This document shows positions 1,641 to 32,481 of a DNA stretch of 35,499 nt, piece by piece. The stretch is taken from the IMG/VR virus record IMGVR_UViG_2718217860_000003, one strand, 5' to 3'. Below the pieces are notes generated by a model. That model did no database searches, was not told the origin of the DNA, and saw nothing but the letters and a program-made list of their open reading frames with translations. Within the stretch, counting starts at the first letter, position 1. Every line of letters begins with the position of its first letter. Source of the DNA: a virus (taxonomy: Duplodnaviria > Heunggongvirae > Uroviricota > Caudoviricetes). A program made the translations under genes and the position numbers.

Positions 1641-4148
1641 TTAAGAATCAGCCTGACTCGGGATCAGTTTTTGCCAGATAACTGAAACGTATTTTGCCTG
1701 GTAACGGGCGTCATCAAGTGCATTATGGCGCTCACCTTCGAATGGAATAGCCGTTCTGGCATCGAAGTCTATGGCTTTCCCCAGCTCAACGATTGTGCGT
1801 ACATCGCGATCGTTGTAGTAACGCCACGGGCAGGGGATCCCCTGCCGTTCGTATGAACGGCGCAAAATCGTGTTGTCGAAGTTGGCTCCATTTCCCCAAA
1901 CCTGAACAAAAAATTCACCGGAGTTTTCGTCGATAAATTCTCGCAATTGTAACAGTGCATCATCTAACGGGATTTCATCGGTCATAATGGCAGATTGCGC
2001 TTCGCGTGATTGCTTAAGCCACCATTTAATGGTGTCCCGATCAATGACTCCGCCAGCAGTTTCCAGATCGATAGTCTTACTAAATTCCGGTCCCATATCT
2101 CCGGTTTGCGGATCGAAAAATATTGCACCTATTGAGATGATCGGGGCATCAGGATTTTTTCCCATGGTTTCAAGGTCGATCATTAGATGGTCACACGTCC
2201 TGCTGGTGGATGTGATTCCGTGATGACCGTTCACCTTAATTGGGTGATCTGCCGTCTCGCCAGTTTCATTATCGCTATTGTGATGCTGATTGCCGCCAGT
2301 GTTCTCCTTGTGTGGATGTTCAGCGCCTTCCATTTCCTCCGGATCATCTTCCTGAACTTCAACCTGATACTCTTCATCGAATGTTTCTTGGTATGTTGCG
2401 TCGCCCATCACCGCGCCACAATCAGGGCAGTTGCCGCCGCCGGTCTGACCGCAGGCGGTGCAGACTTTTTCCACTTCCTGTTGCGCTACTGGTTCAGGCT
2501 GTTTCGTTTCTGGCTCGTTTTGTAACGCATTTGGACTGTTTTGTTCCGCTTTTTGGTAGTTCCGTTCCGATTCATGCTGGTTCTGGTTCACAGAATCGCG
2601 GGTCTGGAGCCCCTTAACCCATTTCGGATCATTCGGGTCACTAATCCCTTCAACAAATTCACCACGTGATGCAGCAAGCAACTTATCGGCGTCAGGCTGG
2701 CTGATATTGGCTGCCTGCATAATTTTGTTTACTTCGTCAGCGGTAACTTTTATCGGCTCTGGTTGTTCTGAATCTTCAGCGGTATCTACATTTTGCGGTA
2801 AGCCCGTGTATGTGCCATTTTTTCGGGCAAAATATTCTTCTTTTGTGATTTCAGTGGCGCCAGCAGCCAGTGCCTTATCCAGACCAGAGAGTTTGTTTGC
2901 GCGACCGTATTTTTCTCCGTCCTTATCTGCGAAGAGGAAATAGAACGGCCCCTCACGCTCTACAGATGGTTCAGCTTCCGGCGCGGTTTCATTTTTTGGG
3001 ATATCAGATACCTCAGTTTCCACTGCATCAGTTTGTGTTTCTGATGACTGGAGAACATCAACAGTGCCCAGGTCTGTTTCTTCATTCTCAAACACGCCCT
3101 TTGTCGTCAGGTATTCGCAGATATATTTGTTCAGTGCTACGGGATCTTTGTGAATGTCGATCGGACGCTCACGGACAAGGCCAAAAATAGTTTGGCGGTC
3201 GTAGCGAAGGGCATCAGGCTGTTTGCGCATTGATGCCGAGATACGCTTCCAGTCTTCGCGGTCGTTGTCGATAACTTCTTTTTTTGCCCAGCGATGGATG
3301 CTGCCGTCAATGTTTCCGGCATCCACATCACCAGGCCAGAGAGCGTAGGCCAGTTCGTCATCCAGTGTTTTCCATGTCTGCTTGTATTCGCGATGAATGG
3401 CAGCAATGACCGGGCTGATTTTTCCTGTTGAATTTTCAGTGTACTGTTGATTGGCTCTGGCGCGGGCGAGATCAACAACAGACGTGTATTTTCCGGTTTC
3501 CTTGCGTTCACCTTCGCGACGTTTTTTCCAGATGCGCATCTCTGCCTGAATTTCGGGCCATTTAGCACCAGGAATACATTTATGCTTAACCCACCCAATG
3601 GCGTGCAACTTAAGCTCCGGATACATGGCGTTAACTTCTGGCATTTTCATCAACGCTTCAACGATATGTCCGTCGAATGTTGCCATGTCTTCCTGCAACA
3701 ATTCCTGTGCGCTAATAACCATATCAACGGTGATGTTTTCACATGTGTCGAACTTAACCATGACAGCGTTCTGTACTTCAGGGGCCAGCTTGTCAAAAGT
3801 GACGTTCATCGGATCGGATTCAGTCTCAACCGGGACAAAAGAAGCAGACTCCTCATCCCAGCGGTTTTCCTGCATATATTCAGCATCCCATGAATCGAGG
3901 GCAGGGCGGGGTATGCCAGGTTTATCCTCGCAGACAATAAATTTATAAGCGCAGTCCTGAGCAGCCGGATAATGTTCCAGGAATTGCCAGTGAAATTTTG
4001 CTCGAGCACGGCGTTCGTCGCCAGCTTCAATGGCTGTGGCTACAGCCACAGCGCCTTCTTCCCTTGTTGCCAGTTCGTCAGGAATAGCGGCGCAAATAAA
4101 GACTTTACTCATTTGTTTTAACCTCATGACAGATTTAAGGATGAACAA
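1641..4148 (-). CDS. Large early-region protein with a C-terminal DnaQ-like DEDDh 3'-5' exonuclease domain, a central Cys4 zinc-ribbon-like motif and an acidic low-complexity linker
   Basis: 835-aa ORF. The C-terminus carries Exo I (MIDLETMG), an Exo II-like (GNGANFDNTIL) and Exo III (ERHNALDDARYQ) motif. A Cys cluster CTACGQTGGGNCPDCG lies mid-protein. The more likely start is Met13 at 4112 (MSKVF...) with GAGG 9 nt upstream. Sits in the exo/recE position of lambdoid phages. Confidence 0.8.
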   Translation of the reverse strand: MFILKSVMRLKQMSKVFICAAIPDELATREEGAVAVATAIEAGDERRARAKFHWQFLEHYPAAQDCAYKFIVCEDKPGIPRPALDSWDAEYMQENRWDEESASFVPVETESDPMNVTFDKLAPEVQNAVMVKFDTCENITVDMVISAQELLQEDMATFDGHIVEALMKMPEVNAMYPELKLHAIGWVKHKCIPGAKWPEIQAEMRIWKKRREGERKETGKYTSVVDLARARANQQYTENSTGKISPVIAAIHREYKQTWKTLDDELAYALWPGDVDAGNIDGSIHRWAKKEVIDNDREDWKRISASMRKQPDALRYDRQTIFGLVRERPIDIHKDPVALNKYICEYLTTKGVFENEETDLGTVDVLQSSETQTDAVETEVSDIPKNETAPEAEPSVEREGPFYFLFADKDGEKYGRANKLSGLDKALAAGATEITKEEYFARKNGTYTGLPQNVDTAEDSEQPEPIKVTADEVNKIMQAANISQPDADKLLAASRGEFVEGISDPNDPKWVKGLQTRDSVNQNQHESERNYQKAEQNSPNALQNEPETKQPEPVAQQEVEKVCTACGQTGGGNCPDCGAVMGDATYQETFDEEYQVEVQEDDPEEMEGAEHPHKENTGGNQHHNSDNETGETADHPIKVNGHHGITSTSRTCDHLMIDLETMGKNPDAPIISIGAIFFDPQTGDMGPEFSKTIDLETAGGVIDRDTIKWWLKQSREAQSAIMTDEIPLDDALLQLREFIDENSGEFFVQVWGNGANFDNTILRRSYERQGIPCPWRYYNDRDVRTIVELGKAIDFDARTAIPFEGERHNALDDARYQAKYVSVIWQKLIPSQADS

Positions 4149-4204
4149 ATCCCTGCCATTGCTGGCATATAAGAATGAAACCGGATATTTATTACGGAAC
4201 TGTT

Positions 4205-4396
4205 TTAAAGACCTGCCGGGATTTCGATATTATCCTGGTGAATAACTTTATCGACCGGGTAACAGTTACCGGGAATTTTCTGTTCGGTTGCTGCAGTCAT
4301 ACACTCCTGCATTGTCCTGTGAACACTGACTGCAATATCAACTGGCTCTCCGGAAACAAGAAAAACTGTCAGAACAAGCACAAATGCTGAATTCAT
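4205..4396 (-). CDS. ydfD: YdfD-like small protein (Qin prophage lysis-inducing protein family), N-terminal hydrophobic segment
   Basis: 63-aa product MNSAFVLVLTVFLVSGEPVD... from the internal Met of the 81-aa ORF; its start overlaps the dicB stop as ATGA (translational coupling). Matches the YdfD sequence as recalled. Confidence 0.75.
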   Translation of the reverse strand: MNSAFVLVLTVFLVSGEPVDIAVSVHRTMQECMTAATEQKIPGNCYPVDKVIHQDNIEIPAGL

Positions 4397-4581
4397 TGTG
4401 CACATCCTTTTGGCATCAGACGTAAACGAGCCAGCATTGAAACAATGCATATTTTATTTAATAGCTCCCGTTCTTGTTTTCTCTTGTTAATGGCATCTTC
4501 AGTAAATACTGGGTTACTGATAGTGACACCAATTTCAAAACAACCTTCAGACGTATTAACGTTTGGTAATAACGTTTTCAT
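4393..4581 (-). CDS. dicB: Cell-division inhibitor DicB
   Basis: 62-aa product MKTLLPNVNTSEGCFEIGVTISNPVFTEDAINKRKQERELLNKICIVSMLARLRLMPKGCAQ from the internal Met of the 97-aa ORF; matches DicB as recalled; directly downstream of dicF. Confidence 0.85.
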   Translation of the reverse strand: MKTLLPNVNTSEGCFEIGVTISNPVFTEDAINKRKQERELLNKICIVSMLARLRLMPKGCAQ

Positions 4582-4750
4582 TATCGCGTCCTCAACAATG
4601 AATTTTGTGATGCAGTGCCTGGTGCCTCCAGGTGACGTTAACCAGTTAACAATTAACGCCGGATACAGAGAATCCACCCATAACACTGTTTTTGGTTTTA
4701 ACTGTTCCGCGTGCGCTCAGCCGCATTCACCACATCACAAAATTCACTTT

Positions 4751-4808
4751 AAAAAGGGCGGCAGAGCAGTCACGGAGTAAAACTGATACCGCCAAACGTC
4801 ACCAGAAA
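4751..4808 (-). ncRNA. dicF: DicF small RNA (ftsZ-targeting antisense sRNA) with its intrinsic terminator
   Basis: The minus strand reads UUUCUGGUGACGUUUGGCGGUAUCAGUUUUACUCCGUGACUGCUCUGCCGCCCUUUUU, a GGCGG...CCGCC hairpin followed by a U-run, lying between ydfC and dicB as in the Qin dicB operon. Ends are approximate. Confidence 0.85.
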
Positions 4809-5148
4809 ATTGATAACAGAGGGCGTTGCAGCGGGGTTGTCACTTAAGCGTATGGTCAACCTGACAACCCGGTGTCCTCAACGGGGAAGGAATAACCCCG
4901 CCATACTTACCGCCGCGCCATTTCGCGGGTTGCCACAACCGGAAGCGCACGGTCGACGAAAATTTAACGACAGGCTATCTATGAACCAGCTACCTCGCCG
5001 TGCGCTTTCGCGTTATGGTCTGACTTTTCAGGGAAATATCCTTTCAGTAAACTGTCAGTTCCGGATGCGCACCCGTGTCCGGCGCACGCACTCCACCTCA
5101 CCCGTGGAGAACTCCTTAATTACTAACCTTAGCTTTGTTGATTAGCTA

Positions 5149-5367
5149 CTAACGCGGGTATGTAATCATTCTGGCAATGCTTAATGCCGCTGCTTTTTCC
5201 AGATTGGTGATATCCTGCTCCAGAGCGGACAGATTTTCAGCCTGCTTAGCCCTGGCTTCATTAGCCCATTTCAGATCCTGCGCTGCATTAATTTTCTGGC
5301 GCATCCACTCATAAAGTTCATCATCGGTATAGTCTGGCGCGATGATGACGGGTTCTCGTTTCTGCAT
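5149..5367 (-). CDS. ydfC: YdfC-like prophage protein
   Basis: 72-aa ORF in the conserved position between ydfB and dicF. Confidence 0.7.
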   Translation of the reverse strand: MQKREPVIIAPDYTDDELYEWMRQKINAAQDLKWANEARAKQAENLSALEQDITNLEKAAALSIARMITYPR

Positions 5368-5396
5368 ACTGATTCCTCGCGGTGCTGTTTCGCTTA

Positions 5397-5524
5397 TCAG
5401 CCGTTAGATTTTGCCGAACTGGAAAGCGCCTGTTTAAACTCACTGAAGCTGAGAGCTTCTTCGCCTTCGGCAAGGCCTTCGAAGTATTCTTCGTAAGCCT
5501 TTTCCATGATTGTGTCGAAATCCA
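5397..5524 (-). CDS. ydfB: YdfB-like small acidic protein (42 aa)
   Basis: Not in the ORF track (too short). Manual minus-strand translation from ATG at 5524 gives MDFDTIMEKAYEEYFEGLAEGEEALSFSEFKQALSSSAKSNG*, stopping at 5397-5399. Confidence 0.7.
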
Positions 5525-5526
5525 TA

Positions 5527-5682
5527 TCACTCACCTGAGTTTCTTTCCAGCCAGCGACGGGCACCATTTTCGGTTTTAAACGTTTTGCTTTTGGTATACG
5601 TCATTGCGGTGAACGTGCCGTCCTGGTTTGGAAACACGCCGTACACCAGAGATTCGTTGTTGCCAAGATCGATAGTATCCAT
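5527..5682 (-). CDS. ydfA: YdfA-like small protein (51 aa)
   Basis: Internal Met of the 103-aa ORF gives MDTIDLGNNESLVYGVFPNQDGTFTAMTYTKSKTFKTENGARRWLERNSGE; first gene of the dicB operon, downstream of a DicA-operator-like palindrome. Confidence 0.7.
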   Translation of the reverse strand: MDTIDLGNNESLVYGVFPNQDGTFTAMTYTKSKTFKTENGARRWLERNSGE

Positions 5683-5797
5683 GCTGACCTCATTTCCCCT
5701 TAACGCTGGGGTAGCGGAACTGTTTGCGGAGAACACCGTGCGGTGTGTTGATGGAGGTAATTTAGTTTTCTCATTATTTTTCGTCAAGGTTTTTTGA

Positions 5798-5809
5798 TGA
5801 GAAAACTCA
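5798..5809. promoter_or_regulatory. Operator-like palindrome TGAGAAAACTCA at the ydfA (dicB operon) promoter region
   Basis: Inverted repeat TGAG-AAAA-CTCA between the dicA 3' end and ydfA; a near-identical copy lies in the dicA/dicC divergent region. Confidence 0.5.
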
Positions 5810-5874
5810 AGTGTTGGCGCAAGATAAAGCCAATACATTGAAATGTAAGGCTTTAAAATTTTGTGAAGGGATGA

Positions 5875-6332: not shown

Positions 6333-6346
6333 TTGAGAAAACTCAA
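6333..6346. promoter_or_regulatory. Operator-like palindrome TTGAGAAAACTCAA in the dicA/dicC divergent promoter region
   Basis: Perfect inverted repeat 14 nt upstream of the dicC RBS (GGAGG); same core as the site at 5798-5809. Confidence 0.55.
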
Positions 6347-6359
6347 TATTGGAGGTGCG

Positions 6360-6587
6360 ATGTTTAAATCAGACGTAATTAATTTTTACGGTACGAAAGC
6401 CAAAGTAGCGAAAGCTGCTGGCGTTGACCCATCTGCTGTTTCTCAATGGCAAGAGCTAGTTCCTGAAGGTCGCGCGATGCGTCTACAGGAGGCATCTGGC
6501 GGCGAGCTTCTGTATGATCCCAAGGTTTATGACGAATATCGTAAGACGAAGCGGGCGGGGCGGTTGAACAATGAAAATCACTCCTGA
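6360..6587 (+). CDS. dicC: DicC-like Cro-type regulator
   Basis: 75-aa product from the internal ATG (MFKSDVINFYGTKAKVAKAAGV...GRAMRLQEASGGELLYDPKVYDEYRKTKRAGRLNNENHS) with GGAGG upstream; divergent from dicA. Confidence 0.8.
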   Translation: MFKSDVINFYGTKAKVAKAAGVDPSAVSQWQELVPEGRAMRLQEASGGELLYDPKVYDEYRKTKRAGRLNNENHS

Positions 6588-8753: not shown

Positions 8754-9653
8754 ATGATTGATCCACTTATTAGAAACTTACAGAGTGATATTGCACTACT
8801 CCAGCTTTATATCGCGCAACGCAAACAGGCAGGCTTTCATGACATGGAAAGAATAATTGAGTCATTGACCATCTTTATGTTTCGCGCGCTGAAAATGGGT
8901 GAACTGGTAAACATGAATCAGATTAAAGTTAATTTTCCCGCCATTGATTTAGCTGATAATAAAAACATGATAGCAGTTCAAGTTACTACGAATGCAAGTC
9001 CAGCAAAAATTAAAAAAACTATCGAATCTTTTGAGGAAGCAAATGAAATAGGAGAGAGTCTGAAAGATAAATACTCTACTTTATATATTTTTGGTTTTTG
9101 TAAAGCCTCAAGATACCTAACTCCAAGTTATTGTAAAATAATCGACCCCAGCTATTTCGTGAATGAACTTTGCGATAAAGCAGATGAAGATATGGTCCAG
9201 GATATGATTGACGCCATTCGACGCCATCATGATTATACATCATTACATCCATGGAGTGATAAAGATTCACTCGAAATTATACTCAATATTATTAATCGCA
9301 ATGCAATAAAACATCGGATGAGTTGCGAAGGCAGTCTGTCTGATATGCTCACTGGTTTAAAAGAAATTAATGAAGTAATTACAAAAGGAACAATTCAACG
9401 TAAGCAACGTTCAAAATCGATATCTGACTTCAAAGATCAAAGCATGGTGAAATTTATGAGAGGTGTAATGGATGATTTGTCTGTTATTCAAGCCATAGTG
9501 AACAAATCTAAAGTTAACCAAGGTGATATGGTTTATATAAGCCATGAAGATATGATTAATATTGATAAATTAAAAGCTAAAATAGCAAGTGATTCATCAG
9601 AGATTGCAAGGCTAAATAATATTGATATAACACTAAATGTTGTTGATTTATAA
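8754..9653 (+). CDS. Hypothetical protein encoded in an AT-rich accessory island (candidate defence/abortive-infection-type protein)
   Basis: 299-aa ORF in a visibly AT-rich block; no confident family match. Convergent with the membrane protein/methyltransferase operon. Confidence 0.7.
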   Translation: MIDPLIRNLQSDIALLQLYIAQRKQAGFHDMERIIESLTIFMFRALKMGELVNMNQIKVNFPAIDLADNKNMIAVQVTTNASPAKIKKTIESFEEANEIGESLKDKYSTLYIFGFCKASRYLTPSYCKIIDPSYFVNELCDKADEDMVQDMIDAIRRHHDYTSLHPWSDKDSLEIILNIINRNAIKHRMSCEGSLSDMLTGLKEINEVITKGTIQRKQRSKSISDFKDQSMVKFMRGVMDDLSVIQAIVNKSKVNQGDMVYISHEDMINIDKLKAKIASDSSEIARLNNIDITLNVVDL

Positions 9654-9967
9654 TTGTCGATTTAGCAAAACAGAGAATGCTTTGAAAGTTTCACCGAGAA
9701 ATATTTATTGTGAACCTCCTTATTGTTTATCGACTTTTACTCTCCGCTCATTGCAGTACTGTCGGAGAAGGCTACTATGTACAAGAAGCAGCTAACATAA
9801 GCGAGCATCACTATTGATATTAGGAAGAGTATATAAAAACTTCATGCTGAACCTTACAAAAGTAGGTAAACCGGCAATGGCCTAAGTGGCAGGGTCATGT
9901 TGATCCGGCACTGCCGAGCTAATAATTAACAAGCAAATCACTCTTTCTAATAATTTGTTGAAATAAA

Positions 9968-10627
9968 CTAAATATGTATATGTTTACCAACAACCACATA
10001 TGAACTACCTGCTTTGCTCCATGATTTTATTATTTCTAAATTATTATCTGAGCATATTTTACTTACAGTATCCACATCTAATAAACCATAGTAGAAAGCA
10101 TTACGAGAGTTTTGGTATATATACCCATGCAAATGTTTAATACCGCTCTCGTACCTCTTGAAATAAGAACTTTTGTATTGATTGACAATCAGTGCTTCAC
10201 CATCACTCTTTAATAATTCTCTAATCGCACTGAGGACTTTGTGAATTGTGGATTCACATGGAATTGCGGAAAGCACGTTTGCGCAAAGTATGAAATCATA
10301 ATGATTTGTTATTTTATCTATATTTTCATAAGAAACAATATTAGCATTCTTATAGTTATTTATCACGTAATCTGGAATCGTGGTTTGTACACCTCTGATA
10401 ATTTGCACTCTTTCTAGTTGTCTTCTGGAATCTAAAAATGTCACAGTTTCAAATTTATTTACTAATTGTTCTGAATATCTAAGTTTTCCACATCCAAAAT
10501 CAAGGGCATTGCCATTTTTATTAGTGCTTTCAATCTGTTTACAGAGATAGTTAGATGGCATAGTGTGCGGTTTCGCTGCATTTTCTGAACGTATGTTTAT
10601 TCCATTTATTTTGTAATTCAAAATCAA
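9968..10627 (-). CDS. Class I SAM-dependent methyltransferase (not a recognisable DNA methyltransferase)
   Basis: 219-aa ORF with SAM-binding motif I (ALDFGCGKLRYSEQL), an acidic post-I residue (VTFLDSRRQ) and a motif II-like segment (DFILCANVLSAIP). No DPPY/NPPY or PCQ motifs. Confidence 0.75.
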   Translation of the reverse strand: MILNYKINGINIRSENAAKPHTMPSNYLCKQIESTNKNGNALDFGCGKLRYSEQLVNKFETVTFLDSRRQLERVQIIRGVQTTIPDYVINNYKNANIVSYENIDKITNHYDFILCANVLSAIPCESTIHKVLSAIRELLKSDGEALIVNQYKSSYFKRYESGIKHLHGYIYQNSRNAFYYGLLDVDTVSKICSDNNLEIIKSWSKAGSSYVVVGKHIHI

Positions 10628-10633
10628 CCTCGT

Positions 10634-11341
10634 TTAAAAAATATTGTTATTGTTAAAGAATTCTTTTATTTTGCTATCAGGTATTTGTCTTACTTGGCTT
10701 TCTGTTCTTGGTTTAACTGATGCTATGAAAATAAGGAAGTCAAATGCGACAAGAGAAATAATCCACAACCAAAGATTAATTAAAGAGCCAGTAACAGAGA
10801 ATATATTTGTTAATTTGGCGATACTTATTATTAAAATAGTAACAAATGCGATTACTGTATGTTCAAAGAAAACCCAAAAGTAATAAACTTTGTTCCAGAA
10901 AAGTTCAACGTAATGTTTGTCTTTTAACTCTTTAACTTCTGGGTAATACAGTTTACTCATTACCTTGTGAGATTCATCAGTAGTTAATTTTCTCGTAACG
11001 CCTGCAATTTTTGCTAATGGTTTAATAATTAAATGACTATCCCACATCTTCCTTATTCCAATAATTTTTGCTACATTATTATGTAGATCTAAAGCTCCAC
11101 TAATTACTGACCAAAAAACTGAAGATGCAATTGGTAATATGCCAAAGGTTAATATCCATTTAATAAATTCCTCGTAGTCTTTAACGGGGGGGATATACTT
11201 GGCATTAATGCCAACCAATGGCATGTAGCCATAAATGACTAATGATAGGTAAAATATAAATGTAGTAATAAAAGTCGCCTTATGGAGCATAGGCAACATT
11301 TCATTATAACTCTTTGGTGGTTCTAACATTTTACTCTCCAA
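10634..11341 (-). CDS. Integral membrane protein (about 4 predicted TM helices), function unknown; forms an operon with the downstream methyltransferase
   Basis: 235-aa ORF with several long hydrophobic stretches; its stop lies 6 bp from the methyltransferase start on the same strand. Confidence 0.7.
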   Translation of the reverse strand: MESKMLEPPKSYNEMLPMLHKATFITTFIFYLSLVIYGYMPLVGINAKYIPPVKDYEEFIKWILTFGILPIASSVFWSVISGALDLHNNVAKIIGIRKMWDSHLIIKPLAKIAGVTRKLTTDESHKVMSKLYYPEVKELKDKHYVELFWNKVYYFWVFFEHTVIAFVTILIISIAKLTNIFSVTGSLINLWLWIISLVAFDFLIFIASVKPRTESQVRQIPDSKIKEFFNNNNIF

Positions 11342-12014
11342 ACATTCAAAAAAAAGCTAATCTTCTATAATAACGAAATTCAGCTGGCACAATTAAAGAT
11401 TAATTGCCACCAATTTCTTGATTTTATAATTTTATCTAAATGTTTTTGATTAATCTAGTCCTAAAAGAAACCTACTGCATAAATATTTATGCTGATGACC
11501 CACTCCCTGTTCGTTAACACATAGCAACGTTAGTAATGCATCCTAAGTGATCAATATTTTTGCTAGCTTCATCTGCTCGCTCAAAGGGAACTATAATGTT
11601 GGCTTGCGTGTGACTTGGCATGTTTAAAGAAGTGCTGGTGGTGACTGGTTGCTGTTTTCCATTTCCACAGAACAAAATCATAGAAACTATACCCAGTAGT
11701 TGTATTGAATCACTGACGAGACAGCCTCATATTTATCAGGACTGGTGTACGTCCAATACAGGAGGTTGTGGTGCTGGTTCTCAAATGTGCGCTGGCTATT
11801 GCTGCTGTAATGGCAATTTATTGTCTTGCTGTTGTTCTTATGGATCACCTTTCTGATTGATTTCATATTGGCGAGGTAACGGTAGTTAAGTAGAATTGCT
11901 GCGGGTGCTTGAGGCTATCTGCCTCGGGCATCAACACCAAAGGCAGATAGAGAAAAGCCCCAGTTAACATTACGCGTCCGGCAAGACGCTTAACATTAAT
12001 CTGAGGCCATATCT

Positions 12015-12227
12015 ATGCTCTACACACGTAGGTTAGCCTCTTACGTGCCGAAAGGCAAGGAGAAGCAGGCTATGAAGCAGCAAAAGGCGATGCTAATCGC
12101 CCTGATCGTCATCTGTTTAACCGTCATAGTGACGGCACTGGTAACGAGGAAAGACCTCTGCGAGGTACGAATCCGAACCGGTCAGACGGAGGTCGCTGTC
12201 TTCACAGCTTACGAACCTGAGGAGTAA
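12015..12227 (+). CDS. Mok-like leader ORF in frame with hokD (N-terminally extended reading frame)
   Basis: The track ORF starts 19 codons upstream of the Hok Met in the same frame. Confidence 0.35.
   Translation: MLYTRRLASYVPKGKEKQAMKQQKAMLIALIVICLTVIVTALVTRKDLCEVRIRTGQTEVAVFTAYEPEE
12072..12227 (+). CDS. hokD: Hok/Gef-family type I toxin (HokD/RelF-like)
   Basis: 51-aa product MKQQKAMLIALIVICLTVIVTALVTRKDLCEVRIRTGQTEVAVFTAYEPEE with AAGGAG RBS; single TM helix and conserved Hok C-terminus. Confidence 0.9.
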   Translation: MKQQKAMLIALIVICLTVIVTALVTRKDLCEVRIRTGQTEVAVFTAYEPEE

Positions 12228-12443: not shown

Positions 12444-12695
12444 ATGATGAACATCGAAGAACTGCGTAAAATTTTTTGTGAAGATGGCCTCTATGCTGTG
12501 TGCGTTGAAAATGGAAATATTGTTAGTCATTACCGCATTGTGTGTTTGCAAAAAAATGGGGCTGCGTTAATTAATTTTGTGGATGCCCGAGTGACGGACG
12601 GATTTATCTTGCGCGACGGTGAGTTTGTCACTTCATTACAGGCATTGAAAGAGATCGGAATAAAAGCTGGCTTTTCTGCTTTTTCAGAAGAATAA
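12444..12695 (+). CDS. rem: Rem-like prophage protein
   Basis: 83-aa ORF MMNIEELRKIF... adjacent to hokD, as in the Qin prophage. Confidence 0.65.
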   Translation: MMNIEELRKIFCEDGLYAVCVENGNIVSHYRIVCLQKNGAALINFVDARVTDGFILRDGEFVTSLQALKEIGIKAGFSAFSEE

Positions 12696-14103: not shown

Positions 14104-14478
14104 ATGCTCATAGATTTGGTTTTACCTTACCCGCCGACGGTGAACACTTACTGGCGACGCCGTGGCAGCACATATTTTATCTCGGAGGAGGGAAAGCGTT
14201 ATCGCCGGGCTGTGGCGCTTATTGTTCGCCAGCAGCGGCTGAAATTAAGCCTGTCCGGAAGGCTAGCGATAAAGGTGATTGCAGAGCCACCGGATAAGCG
14301 TCGTCGCGACCTGGACAATATCCTGAAAGCACCGCTGGATGCGCTGACGCATGCGGGAGTGTTAATGGACGATGAGCAGTTTGATGAAATCAATATCGTT
14401 CGTGGTCAGCCAGTATCTGGTGGACGTATGGGGGTGAAGATTTACCCCATAATGCATGAAGAGCAGGTCAAAAAATGA
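14104..14478 (+). CDS. rusA: RusA-family Holliday-junction resolvase
   Basis: 124-aa ORF with conserved acidic residues (PDKRRRDLDNILKAPLDAL...VLMDDEQ) matching the RusA fold; overlaps the Q start by 4 nt. Confidence 0.8.
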   Translation: MLIDLVLPYPPTVNTYWRRRGSTYFISEEGKRYRRAVALIVRQQRLKLSLSGRLAIKVIAEPPDKRRRDLDNILKAPLDALTHAGVLMDDEQFDEINIVRGQPVSGGRMGVKIYPIMHEEQVKK

Positions 14479-15296
14479 AACTGGAAGATTTACCGAAATA
14501 CTACTCCCCAAAATCCCCTTGCCTGACCGATGCATCGGCCTCAACGTCAAAAGATGCGCTGAGTATCACTGATGTGATGGCCGCGCAGGGCATGACACAG
14601 AATCGGGCTGAGATGGGGTTTTCTGCGTTCCTGGGGAAAATGGGCATCAGTATGAATGACAGGGCGCGGGCAACAGAATTACTGGCAGATTATGCACTCA
14701 GTCGGTGCGATCGTGTGGCGGCGTTGAGAAAACTTCCGGCAGAAATAAAACCGTTAGTGATGCGCATTATGGCTTCGTACGCTTTTGAGGATTATGCCCG
14801 CAGCGCAGCGAGTAAAAAGCAGTGCCCTTGTTGCTATGGGGAAAAATTTATTGAAAGCGTAGTTTTTACAAACAAGGTCCAGTATCCGGATGGTAAGCCG
14901 CCGGTATGGGCAAAGTGTACGAAAGGTGTGTATCCGTCTTACTGGGAAGAATGGAAAAAAGTCAGGGAGGTGGTAAAAGTTGCCTGTCCGGAGTGTGGCG
15001 GAAAGGGTGAGGTTTCCACCGTCTGTAAGGATTGCCGTGGGCGTGGTGTCGCCATTCACCGTGAAGAGTCGGTAAAACGTGGTATGCCTGTTATCAGAGA
15101 CTGCCAGCGTTGTGGTGGTCGTGGCTATGAAAGACTACCATCAACGGAGGCATTTAATGCTATATGCGAGGTGACAAACCAGATAACACGCGCGTCATGG
15201 GAAAAAACAGTTAAGAAATTCTATGATGCGCTGGTGACCCGGTTTGATATTGAAGAAGCATGGGCTGAGCGGCAGTTAAAAAAGGTAACTAGGTAA
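14475..15296 (+). CDS. quuQ: Late-gene antiterminator Q (Q21/Q82-type, zinc-finger containing)
   Basis: 273-aa ORF with Cys clusters (CPCCYG, CPECGGKGE, CKDCRGRG, CQRCGGRG), immediately upstream of a promoter/terminator pair and the lysis genes. Confidence 0.8.
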   Translation: MKLEDLPKYYSPKSPCLTDASASTSKDALSITDVMAAQGMTQNRAEMGFSAFLGKMGISMNDRARATELLADYALSRCDRVAALRKLPAEIKPLVMRIMASYAFEDYARSAASKKQCPCCYGEKFIESVVFTNKVQYPDGKPPVWAKCTKGVYPSYWEEWKKVREVVKVACPECGGKGEVSTVCKDCRGRGVAIHREESVKRGMPVIRDCQRCGGRGYERLPSTEAFNAICEVTNQITRASWEKTVKKFYDALVTRFDIEEAWAERQLKKVTR

Positions 15297-15439: not shown

Positions 15440-15515
15440 GGTCCTTTAGCTCAGTGGTGAGAGCGAGCGACTCATAATCGCCAGGTCGCTGGTTCAAATC
15501 CAGCAAGGGCCACCA
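15440..15515 (+). tRNA. tRNA with CAU anticodon (ileX/ileZ-type tRNA-Ile2 if lysidine-modified; reads as Met by anticodon alone)
   Basis: Cloverleaf: acceptor GGTCCTT/AAGGGCC, D-arm GCTCAGTGGTGAGAGC, anticodon loop CTCATAA, T-arm GGTTCAAATCC, 3' ACCA. One A-C mismatch at the base of the anticodon stem. Confidence 0.8.
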
Positions 15516-15621
15516 TCACAAACCGCCATGAGCTTATCAGGAAGAGCAGACGACACGATAACAGGGTTGTTGGTGCGGGGGGGGGGGCGGGTCCCCGATG
15601 GCGGTCCATTATCGGTATTCA

Positions 15622-15698
15622 GCGTTGTTAGCTCAGCCGGACAGAGCAATTGCCTTCTAAGCAATCGGTCACTGGTTCGAATCCAGTACAGCGCGCCA
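15622..15698 (+). tRNA. tRNA-Arg (UCU anticodon)
   Basis: Acceptor GCGTTGT/ACAGCGC, D-arm AGCTCAGCCGGACAGAGC, anticodon loop CTTCTAA, T-arm GGTTCGAATCC, 3' GCCA. Confidence 0.8.
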
Positions 15699-16162: not shown

Positions 16163-16695
16163 ATACATATCTGGATTATCACCTGTTACGGTAAAAAGTG
16201 ATTGCTTACTGTTTTTGTGAATGGCATTGCAGCAGCCGGATAATGTCAGTGCTGGCTGACGGTGTGCTGGTGGCGGGTGTGGTGGTTGTTGCTTTCCCGT
16301 TGCTGAAAAAGAAAACGCCAGACTGTTAGCCGGGTATCAGTTAGCGGGAGAAATTTTTAAATACTTCACAATTCAGGCGGTTGACTGTTCTCTGGTTTGC
16401 GGGGAGTTTGTTAAAAGAAACTGGCATGGTGAATCCCCCTGTGCGGAGGGGCAATCAGCGAGTAGGCATATGGGATAATCGCGGATTCAGGTGCTGGTAC
16501 TGAATTCACCGGGAGGCACCCGGCACCATGCACTTCAATAGATTCTCTCCACATTATGGATATTCTTTCAGAATATCCCACGCAGACTTTGTGTAAATGT
16601 TAACAAATGTGCGTTTTATTTGATCTGATTCGCTGTTTGAGCGTCCAAAACAACGGTATATATAATCCTTTACTATATGACATATGTGAGGAAAA

Positions 16696-17124
16696 ATGGG
16701 TTTTCGTAGCGCATCAATTCTTACGTTGATTATTAGTGGGATTATTATCGGGTGCACTGATGCTGTATCGACAAATTATCATGACCGTACATCATATTAC
16801 TCCGATAAAGCAATAGAGACACAGTATGTGAGTTCATCTGAACGTACTTCTGATGTTAGTGAGGATATCCGTCTGTATGCCCATCAAATCAAGAGCGCCA
16901 TCGAAAAACAGTTCGGGGATGCGAGTAAGTATTCAGGAAAAGAGTGTACACTGAGAATGCATATGGCCCCGAATGGCCTTCTACTGGAGGTTAAAAGAGA
17001 AAGTGGAGACCTCGATTTATGTCGTGAAGCGATGAATGCGATAAAGAATGCTGATATACCTGCCCCCCCTTCGCCGGAAGTATATAAAGTATTTCAAAAT
17101 GGGGTGCTGGATTTTAAACCCTGA
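16696..17124 (+). CDS. Lipoprotein with a TolA C-terminal (domain III)-like domain
   Basis: 142-aa ORF; lipobox LIISGIIIGC; C-terminal segment (YAHQIKSAIEKQFGDASKYSGKECTLRMHMAPNGLLLEVKRESGDLDLCREAMNAIKNADIPAPPSPEVYKVFQNGVLDFKP) closely parallels the E. coli TolA domain III sequence as recalled. Confidence 0.8.
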   Translation: MGFRSASILTLIISGIIIGCTDAVSTNYHDRTSYYSDKAIETQYVSSSERTSDVSEDIRLYAHQIKSAIEKQFGDASKYSGKECTLRMHMAPNGLLLEVKRESGDLDLCREAMNAIKNADIPAPPSPEVYKVFQNGVLDFKP

Positions 17125-17274
17125 TATTTATTGTTTTGTAATAAACGGTTTCGGCTTAGGTTTGTTCTGACACAACTACGGCACTGAGCTAAATTTAGCG
17201 GATAGTCAGCTCTGAGCCAGTGGCGGACGTAACAACTACTATTGCTGAGATTTTAATGGATTGAGGAGCAAGAA

Positions 17275-17670
17275 GTGGGATTAAAGAAAATCGTTATGTT
17301 GACTTTTTGGGTCGGTTTTGTTGCGGGATGCACACCTTTACACCCTTCAGATTGCCACAAAACTACTGCTACAGGTAGTTGCAGTTCAGGACGCTGGGAT
17401 GATCAGGATGAATGGGGGGCGCAAGCGCGGGGAATCAGAGCTGCAATTAATGCCAAACTTGATGAGCCGCATAACTGGAAAGGGAAAATATGCAGGTTGC
17501 ATATGGAATTCTCTCAGGATGGCACGGCGTTAAAAATATCTACCAGTAACGGTGATAAAGCCTATTGCGAAGCGATAAAGTCCGCAGCTCATAAAGCCAA
17601 ATTTCCGGCCTTCAACAATCCGAAAGTCTACAGAGATTTTCAGAAATCTGGCTTTGACATGCGAGGTTAG
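17275..17670 (+). CDS. Second, divergent lipoprotein with a TolA domain III-like C-terminus (paralogue of the upstream gene)
   Basis: 131-aa ORF; lipobox VGFVAGC; shares KxCxLHM...G..L...........C.A...A.......P....VY..FQ spacing with the upstream protein and TolA-III. Confidence 0.7.
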   Translation: MGLKKIVMLTFWVGFVAGCTPLHPSDCHKTTATGSCSSGRWDDQDEWGAQARGIRAAINAKLDEPHNWKGKICRLHMEFSQDGTALKISTSNGDKAYCEAIKSAAHKAKFPAFNNPKVYRDFQKSGFDMRG

Positions 17671-21337: not shown

Positions 21338-21638
21338 ATGGATCGAGAGTTGAAAAATCTGACGCTGAATATCAGTCAACTGGCGGCACTGTCAGGTGTA
21401 CATCGCCAGACTGCTGCGGCAAGGCTGCAAAATCTACCCGTTGCAGGGGGGCATGAAAGCAACCTCAAGCTTTATCGGGTGGTTGATATTGTGTCGGCAT
21501 TTCTGGCATTGCCACCGCCGGTTGCAGAAGGCGAAATGGACGCGCATGAGCGCAAAGCCTGGTATCAGTCTGAACGTGAGCGTCTTAAGTTCGAACAGGA
21601 AACGGCACAACTCATTCCGGCCAGTGATGTCAGACGGG
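21338..21638 (+). CDS. Terminase small subunit (Nu1/NohA-like), 3'-truncated by the assembly gap
   Basis: N-terminal HTH-like segment (LNISQLAALSGVHRQTAAARL); the ORF runs into the N-run. Confidence 0.6.
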
Positions 21639-21738
21639 NNNNNNNNNNNNNNNNNNNNNNNNNNNNNNNNNNNNNNNNNNNNNNNNNNNNNNNNNNNNNN
21701 NNNNNNNNNNNNNNNNNNNNNNNNNNNNNNNNNNNNNN
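21639..21738. other. Assembly gap (100 N) between terminase and tail gene M
   Basis: Run of 100 ambiguous bases; terminase-large through tail gene H are absent from the window. Confidence 0.99.
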
Positions 21739-21765
21739 TGGTCGGTTAAGTGGAGCATATCGGTA

Positions 21766-22095
21766 ATGGAGACGTTTCACTGGAAAGTGCGCCCGGATAT
21801 GAATGTGGTATCAGAGCCGAAAGTGGTGACAGTGAAGCTGGGCGATGGTTATGAACAGCGTCGTGTGGCGGGACTGAATAACCAGTTGTCGACTTACAGC
21901 GTGACGATACGTGTTCGTAAATGTGAACACCCATCTTTAAAAGCCTTTCTGGAACGGCACGGTGGCGTCCGCGCATTTCAGTGGACGCCACCTTATGACT
22001 GGAAGCCGATCAGGGTGGTTTGTCGTAAATGGTCGGCGAGCGTAGGGGCGCTGTGGGTAACCATAACGGCAGATTTTGAACAGGTCGTGGCATAG
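21766..22095 (+). CDS. M: Tail tip assembly protein M (lambda M-like)
   Basis: 109-aa ORF METFHWKVRPDMNVVSEPKVVTVKLGDGYEQR..., same length and pattern as lambda gpM. Confidence 0.9.
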   Translation: METFHWKVRPDMNVVSEPKVVTVKLGDGYEQRRVAGLNNQLSTYSVTIRVRKCEHPSLKAFLERHGGVRAFQWTPPYDWKPIRVVCRKWSASVGALWVTITADFEQVVA

Positions 22096-31300: not shown

Positions 31301-31900
31301 TACCCGAAACTTGCAGCCGCTTATCCGTCAGGCGTGATCCCTGATATGCGTGGCTGGACGATTAAGGGCAAGCCCGCCAGTGGTCGTGCCGTATTGTCTC
31401 AGGAACAGGACGGCATAAAATCGCATACCCACAGCGCCAGCGCATCCAGTACTGATTTGGGGACGAAAACCACATCGTCGTTTGATTACGGCACTAAATC
31501 CACGAATAACACTGGTGCGCATACCCATAGTTTAAGTGGCAGCACGAATGCAGCTGGTAATCACAGCCATAGAGATGGCCGTCGATTTAACCCCAGTGTT
31601 TTTAAAGATACTTATCAATATGGTTATACAAGCTCAGGTCAAAATACCTGGGGTGTACAAGGCTCAGTAGGTATGTCTACGGGGGCGTTAGCTAATACCA
31701 GTACAGATGGTAACCATAGCCACTCACTGTCCGGCACAGCAGCATCTGCAGGTGCACACGCACATACTGTCGGTATTGGTGCACACACGCACTCCGTTGC
31801 GATTGGTTCACATGGACACACCATCACCGTTAACGCTGCTGGTAACGCGGAAAACACCGTCAAAAACATCGCATTTAACTATATTGTGAGGCTTGCATAA
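28370..31900 (+). CDS. stf: Side tail fibre protein Stf
   Basis: Begins [26 protein letters not shown]... (the track ORF starts 2 codons earlier at GTG); long Ala/Ser-rich low-complexity shaft, tandem repeat units, His-rich HxH C-terminal tip. Confidence 0.9.
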
Positions 31901-32481
31901 TGGCATTCAGAATGAGTGAACAACCACGGACCATAAAAATTTATAATCTGCTGGCCGGAACTAATGAATTTATTGGTGAAGGTGACGCATATATTCCGCC
32001 TCATACAGGTCTGCCAGCAAACAGTACCGATATTGCACCGCCAGATATTCCTGCTGGCTTTGTGGCTGTTTTCAACAGTGATGAGGCATCGTGGCATCTC
32101 GTTGAAGATCATCGGGGAAAAACCGTCTATGACGTGGCTTCCGGCGACGCGTTATTTATTTCTGAACTTGGCTCGTTACCGGAAAATGTCACCTGGTTAT
32201 CGCCGGAAGGGGAATATCAGAAGTGGAACGGCACAGCCTGGGTGAAGGATACGGAAGCAGAAAAACTGTTCCGGATCCGGGAGGCGGAAGAAACAAAAAA
32301 CAACCTGATGCAGGTAGCCAGTGAGCATATTGCGCCGCTTCAGGATGCTGCAGATCTGGAAATTGCAACGGAGGAAGAAATCTCGTTGCTGGAAGCCTGG
32401 AAGAAGTATCGGGTGTTGCTGAACCGTGTTAATACAACAACTGCACCGGATATTGAATGGCCAGTAGCACCTATAGGGTAA
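31900..32481 (+). CDS. tfa: Tail fibre assembly protein Tfa
   Basis: 193-aa ORF; start overlaps the stf stop (TAATG); conserved Tfa C-terminus ...[31 protein letters not shown]. Confidence 0.9.

Follow-up and report, generated by a model that had tools for sequence, protein, structure and literature searches.

A dicBF division-inhibition operon as the probable early leftward operon of a Qin-like prophage

The prophage sequence IMGVR_UViG_2718217860_000003, a single strand of 35,499 nucleotides referred to here as the window, carries between positions 5682 and 4205 a run of small genes that a preliminary description took to be the division-inhibition operon ydfA-ydfB-ydfC-dicF-dicB-ydfD. Such a locus raises the question of what an operon encoding an inhibitory small RNA, a division inhibitor and a lysis-type protein does for the prophage that carries it, with host takeover in lytic growth, protection of the lysogen, a silent relic and a lysis cassette as the readings to be weighed.

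Operon anatomy and relationship to E. coli K-12

The minus strand from 5682 to 4205 runs exactly from the ydfA start codon to the ydfD stop codon, as read from the sequence and a six-frame list of open reading frames, and the transcript comprises the following elements.

5752-5683, minus strand: 5′ leader of the operon transcript, with one substitution relative to K-12 at 5728
5682-5527, minus strand: ydfA, 51 aa, DUF1391 (PF07151, 98.5 bits; PHROG 751), no assigned function
5525-5397, minus strand: ydfB, 42 aa (PHROG 2061), no assigned function
5367-5149, minus strand: ydfC, 72 aa (PHROG 1744), no assigned function
5148-4809, minus strand: untranslated ydfC-dicF spacer including the DicF precursor, with one substitution relative to K-12 at 5000
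4808-4756, minus strand: DicF sRNA, 53 nt (Rfam RF00039), equal to K-12 b1574
4581-4393, minus strand: dicB, 62 aa, MinC-dependent division inhibitor by identity to K-12
4396-4205, minus strand: ydfD, 63 aa, DUF1482 lysis protein
4167-4144, minus strand: weak terminator-like hairpin with a T-rich tail 3′ of ydfD, from a pattern scan

This is the order of Qin-type dicBF operons, in which ydfA-ydfB-ydfC-dicF-dicB-ydfD share one strand and lie behind a DicA-family repressor, with a divergent DicC. The operon with intact reading frames that had been described was borne out, every element being recovered in place on the minus strand, including the 42-aa ydfB frame with 0 nt differences from K-12. 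A single base separates ydfA from ydfB, and the dicB start is an internal ATG within a longer 97-aa frame. The ATGA noted earlier at the dicB/ydfD junction can be read directly at 4396-4393 as the dicB stop overlapping the ydfD start, an arrangement suggesting that translation of the two genes may be coupled. All five small operon proteins matched PHROG families, with DicB matching PF05358 (136.8 bits, cut-off 27) and NF049927 (132.8 bits, cut-off 100) over residues 1-62 of 62 and YdfD matching PF07358 (91.1 bits, cut-off 25), and in the profile searches ydfB had no Pfam or NCBIfam match. DicF scored 76.7 bits (gathering score 48, E 2e-15) over positions 1-52 of the 52 in the RF00039 model, this being the one DicF match in an Rfam scan of the whole window (4807-4756, minus strand). 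In NZ_CP031134.1, which carries the identical sequence, PGAP labels ydfA, ydfB, ydfC, dicB and ydfD, naming ydfD a lysis protein. Antisense to DicF and the spacer, the plus strand has two open reading frames, 4445-4780 and 4810-5145, for which the annotation of phage PhiR42_1 gives hypothetical proteins; both are regarded as spurious.

Gene-by-gene comparison with E. coli K-12 MG1655 (b1571-b1576) found 0 nt differences in all five reading frames and in DicF. The preliminary description had named inactivating substitutions in the DicF pairing regions or in DicB as evidence that would count against it; both sequences are identical to those of K-12 and therefore carry none. By local alignment the window between 5753 and 3346 differs from K-12 by two mismatches in 2408 bases, both non-coding (5728 and 5000), with the identity stopping at 3346 where IS2E starts in K-12. 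Judged from its sequence, and with no evidence speaking against it, the region is the known dicBF operon, correctly identified and ordinary, and the operon, its sRNA, both active proteins, the repressor logic and the antirepressor have already been published for identical sequences. The 1.55-kb operon has some match in 4757 of 5426 complete E. coli genomes, with at least 80% of it present in 2113 of them, and where there is any match at all the number of matching places has a median of 2 and a maximum of 10. A 2.6-kb query taking in the control region had 100% identity to 12 chromosomes among the matches listed.

Control region, transcript and Rem

The K-12-identical stretch starts at 5753, a single base ahead of the predicted transcription start at about 5752 and 71 bases upstream of ydfA. 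The regulatory elements of the window are as follows.

5787-5759, minus strand: predicted dicBp-equivalent (PL-like) promoter, TTGACG, 17 nt spacer, TAAATT
5761-5774, minus strand: promoter-proximal operator candidate overlapping the -10, its 12-mer at 5762-5773 having one mismatch to TGAGAAAACTCA
5797-5810, minus strand: promoter-distal operator candidate just upstream of the -35, reading TTGAGTTTTCTCAT on the operon strand, with the 12-mer TGAGAAAACTCA exact at 5798-5809
6282-5875, minus strand: DicA-type repressor, 135 aa (NCBIfam NF007257, 239 bits, cut-off 101)
6334-6347, strandless: third operator candidate between the repressor and cro-like genes, with TGAGAAAACTCA exact at 6334-6345
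6360-6587, plus strand, divergent: DicC (Cro-like) regulator (NF007282, 165 bits, cut-off 130; PF14549 P22_Cro)
12444-12695, plus strand: rem, encoding a K-12 Rem homologue with 78 of 83 residues identical (94%)

The predicted promoter agrees with the consensus at 9 of 12 positions, such sites being no commoner in the region than in shuffled sequences, and the layout of operator, -35 and operator overlapping the -10 is shared with K-12 dicBp (TTGACC, 17 nt, TAATCT). The candidates at 5761-5774 and 5797-5810 form an inverted pair. At the third candidate a perfect palindrome, TTGAGAAAACTCAA, occupies 6333-6346 and a rightward promoter-like site (TTGACT, 18 nt, TAGCAT) adjoins it, the repressor gene being flanked on both sides by related candidate operators beside promoter-like sites on two strands. 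With at most one mismatch allowed, the window has three copies of TGAGAAAACTCA where 0.12 would be expected, a number reached in 0 of 100 shuffles, and within the window these copies are confined to the three control-region places. The DicA operator found at the K-12 promoter, TGTTAGT..ACTAACA, is absent from the window, which has the TGAGAAAACTCA sites instead. The repressor likewise differs from K-12 DicA, with 75 of 137 aligned positions identical (about 55%), and DicC diverges at its N-terminus, where 13 of 35 columns are identical as against 40 of 41 in the C-terminal part. The window has the K-12 architecture with an immunity cassette of a different type, membership of the transcribed operon being unaffected, and shows that immunity cassettes are exchanged at the predicted transcription start with the transcript left untouched.

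The predicted start near 5752 is supported because it reproduces three landmarks published for the K-12 transcript (PMC10448788). RNase III cuts that transcript between +813 and +814 (PMC10448788), which corresponds to about 4940/4939 in the window; the 190-nt species released by this cut is computed to end at 4750, just beyond the T5 run (4755-4751) that follows the DicF terminator stem; and the published 1,608-nt transcript would end at 4145, just after the hairpin and T-rich tail at 4167-4144. The fold at this post-ydfD terminator is weak (z = -0.61), and the 5′ leader, when searched for additional RNA structure, gave an unremarkable fold (z = +0.49). In K-12 no transcript was detected past ydfD (PMC10448788). 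Two internal terminators separate the predicted promoter from the exonuclease, xis and int genes. An N-type antiterminator was not recognised, YdfA, YdfB and YdfC having no matching family of this kind in Pfam, NCBIfam and PHROG searches.

In K-12, Rem relieves DicA repression with dicBp derepressed 165-fold, and dicBp does not respond to mitomycin C, responding to Rem, urea, heat and spontaneous switching, with the dicBF operon being expressed in stationary phase (PMC10448788). The upstream region of rem in the window has two differences from K-12 in 300 nt. A profile search of the window repressor matched HTH_3 only, with no peptidase or SOS-cleavage domain match, and a search for a LexA box found none upstream of rem and none at the operon promoter, generic CTG-N10-CAG matches lying elsewhere only. 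The arrangement resembles the Gifsy GfoR/GfoA system in that a short repressor (135 aa) with an HTH and without a cleavage-domain match is accompanied by a separate small antirepressor, rem, but differs from it in that the Gifsy antirepressors are LexA-controlled and no LexA box was found at the window rem.

The K-12-identical dicBF transcript abuts a repressor and operator cassette of another type within one base of the predicted start, and a near-K-12 Rem has been kept. This raises the speculative and rather doubtful suggestion that Rem, acting through patches conserved in both repressors (e.g. LQCSPTWILFGDEDK), could activate, within one cell, dicBF operons belonging to several prophages that differ in immunity. 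If true, Rem cross-activation would tie together the division-inhibition outputs of prophages without shared immunity. As an observation bearing on the same subject, many E. coli genomes have 2 to 10 places that match the operon.

Activities of DicF, DicB and YdfD

The molecular activities attributed to the operon here are all carried over from K-12 experiments on identical molecules. DicF pairs with the ribosome-binding site of ftsZ, a pairing shown in K-12 by compensatory mutations, with ftsZ, xylR and pykA being repressed (PMC5069750). The 5′ and 3′ target-pairing regions of the 53-nt window sequence are those of the characterised K-12 DicF (b1574), the precursor does not differ from that of K-12 between the inferred RNase III site and the 3′ end of DicF, and of 5425 complete E. 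coli genomes 5389 have the targeted ftsZ leader at 99% identity or more. The alignment of DicF to ftsZ that had been proposed as a check gave a duplex of -38.5 kcal/mol, which 9.6% of shuffled DicF sequences equalled or bettered; because this energy is not discriminating, the claim that DicF targets ftsZ mRNA rests on the K-12 genetics, by which it is upheld for the identical sequence (PMC5069750). Within the ydfC-dicF spacer, the DicF precursor region was searched for exceptional RNA structure and showed none (z = -1.35).

DicB works through MinC and ZipA and blocks ManYZ-dependent phages, the plating of lambda and phage 434 being lowered through blocked ManYZ-dependent DNA entry (PMC6832061). 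The window protein is identical to that of K-12, and both earlier statements about it, that it is a MinC-dependent division inhibitor and that it affects phage sensitivity via the mannose PTS (ManYZ), agree with the published work (PMC6832061).

YdfD binds IspG and lyses dividing E. coli, and DicB prevents that lysis (PMC8835842). The earlier designation of ydfD as a lysis-type small protein holds, given the PF07358 match, 0 differences from K-12 and the published lysis (PMC8835842). It could be argued from the lysis of E. coli by ectopic YdfD (PMC8835842), together with the PGAP label of lysis protein, that YdfD is the true lysis effector of the prophage and the operon its lysis cassette. Against this, ydfD lies in an early operon overlapping dicB, whose co-expression prevents YdfD lysis (PMC8835842), and downstream of a Q-like antiterminator, at about 17.9-19.9 kb, the window has a separate region with holin, endolysin and spanin. 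YdfD is therefore not the main lysis system, and a lysis-cassette role for the operon is considered extremely improbable.

Prophage setting and the role of the operon

Directly downstream of ydfD the following genes run to the prophage end.

4112-1641, minus strand: intact exonuclease, 823 aa (PF16473 3′-5′ exonuclease, 226.5 bits)
1568-1317, minus strand: excisionase, coordinates transferred from the NZ_CP031134.1 annotation
1282-2, minus strand: tyrosine integrase at the rspB-proximal prophage end, coordinates transferred from NZ_CP031134.1

The window outside its assembly gap is about 99.98-99.99% identical to the NZ_CP031134.1 prophage, which has the full gene set and adjoins rspB, the Qin site; the few differences all lie outside the operon and its regulators. 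The K-12 Qin dicBF operon (b1571-b1576) shares with the window its gene order, its chromosomal site beside rspB and, apart from the two non-coding substitutions, its transcript from about +1. It differs in the operator and repressor described above and in the state of the genes downstream, with the exonuclease truncated by IS2 (the remnant being the ydfE pseudogene) and int a pseudogene in K-12, whereas exonuclease, xis and int are intact in the window. Because these three genes are intact downstream, we read the operon as early-left in a lambda-like prophage. We consider it very probable that dicBF serves a Qin-like lambdoid prophage beside rspB as its early-leftward (PL-type) operon, repressed by a DicA-type repressor.

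The analogy of dicBp with PL has been drawn for K-12 (PMC10448788). Like the lambda PL operon, the window operon is leftward, early and repressor-controlled via operators beyond the repressor gene, with a small division inhibitor (kil in lambda) placed ahead of recombination, xis and int genes. The two have no sequence relationship, the window has the extra inhibitor sRNA DicF, and no N-like antiterminator was recognised in it. Lambda Kil acts on FtsZ itself, whereas DicB acts via MinC and ZipA.

On the early-leftward reading, an upstream-encoded DicA-type repressor would in the lysogen bind the palindromic candidate operators bracketing and overlapping the promoter, keeping the operon silent. 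Repression would be lost via the Rem antirepressor, if Rem acts on the window repressor, via spontaneous flipping of the DicA/DicC switch or via destabilisation of the repressor, with transcription then beginning near 5752. Some transcripts would stop at the DicF terminator and be cleaved by RNase III as well as RNase E to give DicF, which would pair with the ftsZ ribosome-binding site and other mRNAs, with read-through transcripts yielding DicB and YdfD. DicB, together with MinC and ZipA, would take apart Z rings and also stop the DNA entry of ManYZ-using phages, with YdfD inhibiting IspG and its lysis probably being masked during the division block. The natural role would be host takeover in lytic growth, as for lambda kil. 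The conditional host-takeover or exclusion module that the preliminary description proposed fits this anatomy, in which a repressor-controlled promoter in the lambda-PL position is followed by exonuclease, xis and int.

The two parts of that proposal can be separated, since the operon might serve mainly in defence or superinfection exclusion for the lysogen, through low-level or subpopulation expression, rather than in lytic takeover. The block by DicB of ManYZ-dependent DNA entry of lambda and phage 434 (PMC6832061) would suit such a role, as would the presence of the intact operon in very many genomes, degraded prophages included, and the observation that about 1% of K-12 reporter cells in which the dicBF operon was deleted spontaneously turn dicBp on (PMC10448788). 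With the operon intact, however, no dicBp-on colonies were obtained (Table 1, PMC10448788), the operon being tightly repressed and its products toxic (PMC10448788). PADLOC defence models gave 0 matches among the four operon proteins scanned (DicB, YdfD, YdfA and YdfC), and lytic early genes occupy just such a place, behind a leftward promoter under repressor control and before exonuclease, xis and int. A mainly defensive role is on these grounds unlikely, and the lytic early-left reading is preferred.

The capacity of the prophage for lytic growth turns in part on positions 21639-21738, which are 100 Ns, an assembly gap over the head-gene position. Identical complete genomes have 12.2 kb of terminase-to-tape-measure genes at the position of this gap. 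A 12.2-kb deletion of head and tail genes, making the prophage defective, was considered and dropped because the 100 unmatched bases are Ns and a search of complete genomes found no junction lacking the 12.2-kb segment. The window has intact int, xis and exonuclease genes, an intact Q-like antiterminator gene, and intact lysis and tail genes. The apparently inducible prophage described earlier is plausible, with the N gap hiding the head genes and with a repressor that appears to have no SOS-cleavable domain.

The gap at the expected place of the head genes, taken with the defective state of K-12 Qin carrying the same operon, could instead suggest a silent relic, intact through recent descent in a prophage as defective as that of K-12 and with no useful conditional expression. 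This is hard to reconcile with 0 differences in the reading frames despite a neighbouring immunity module of another type, with the intact genes from int to tail, and with the presence of all morphogenesis genes in complete genomes matching the operon at 100% identity. In addition, the operon is carried by deposited phage genomes, and even in K-12 it is expressed in stationary phase and responsive to Rem, urea and heat (PMC10448788). A relic is accordingly given little credence. Placed early-left and followed by intact exonuclease, xis and int, the dicBF genes appear here in their likely original setting, the window being a less degraded relative of the cryptic Qin prophage of K-12 and as such of modest value.

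Related phages carry the two halves of the region in different combinations. HannyBb (PP925841) resembles the window at 97.3% over the repressor, operators, ydfA and part of ydfB (window 8480-5425) and at 99.0% over window 5028-1100, but another gene stands where the window has the remainder of ydfB, ydfC and some of the spacer. PhiR42_1 (PV340562) is 99.87% identical over window 5753-1100, covering the operon through exonuclease, xis and the start of int, but has a K-12-type immunity module. Among the phage records listed none joins both halves over the whole query, HannyBb being the best with 85% coverage. Operon modules are also present in the further deposited phage genomes mEp460_ev081 (LR597641) and Tritos (OV696610).

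Variation within and beside the dicBF operon

The upstream half of the dicBF operon is, as judged by comparing sequences, itself mosaic among phages, since phage HannyBb (PP925841) lacks the end of ydfB, all of ydfC and a portion of the spacer, has a 205-aa hypothetical protein (4134-4751 of that genome) in their place, and has a DicF region that differs from K-12 DicF rather than being identical to it. The following reading frames lie opposite DicF or downstream of ydfD.

4445-4780 and 4810-5145, plus strand: a pair of ORFs, each of 111 aa, running antisense to DicF and the ydfC-dicF spacer
1641-4112, minus strand: intact 823-aa protein whose C-terminal part is a 3'-5' exonuclease domain (PF16473)

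The record of phage PhiR42_1 (PV340562, 4539-5239) lists both antisense ORFs as hypothetical proteins and leaves DicF and dicB unannotated; the two ORFs are probably an annotation artefact. The 823-aa protein fell well below the equivalog cut-off for RecE (exodeoxyribonuclease VIII), scoring 282 vs. 1269 bits. K-12 ydfE corresponds to its N-terminal part, truncated by IS2.

Genes between the replication genes and rem

Between the replication genes and hokD, the interval 8754-11329 may represent a defence or moron island. The 299-aa protein encoded there matched the N-terminal part of a candidate defence model in PADLOC, Aga_REase-PNTD1-PNTD2, with an E value of 1e-20.

8754-9653, plus strand: 299-aa 'SMEK domain' protein
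9968-10621, opposite strand to the SMEK domain gene and adjoining it: SAM methyltransferase
10634-11329, opposite strand to the SMEK domain gene, beside the methyltransferase: hypothetical protein
within 11903-12077: sok antisense RNA (Rfam match, 114 bits)
12444-12695, after sok and hokD: rem, DicA antirepressor homologue

The hokD toxin gene adjoins the sok RNA according to the annotation of the matching genome. In K-12, relBE lies between hokD and the dic region, whereas other genes occupy that place here.

The late region and the scaffold gap

14475-15296: Q-like antiterminator
15440-15695, downstream of the antiterminator: tRNA-Ile and tRNA-Arg genes
within 16395-17670: STnc100 sRNA match (113.7 bits)
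16696-17124 and about 17296-17670, after the STnc100 match and upstream of the lysis cassette: two small TolA-like proteins
32243-32441: IS009 RNA family match (225 bits)

The sole indel relative to the complete E. coli genome NZ_CP031134.1 falls at 15577, in a poly-G tract between the two tRNA genes. The IS009 match falls within the tail-fibre assembly gene region (31900-32481). A scaffold gap of exactly 100 consecutive Ns occupies 21639-21738; the listed ORF at 21338-21766 reads across it and is an artefact. At the gap position, otherwise identical complete genomes carry 12.2 kb, extending from the large terminase to the tape measure.
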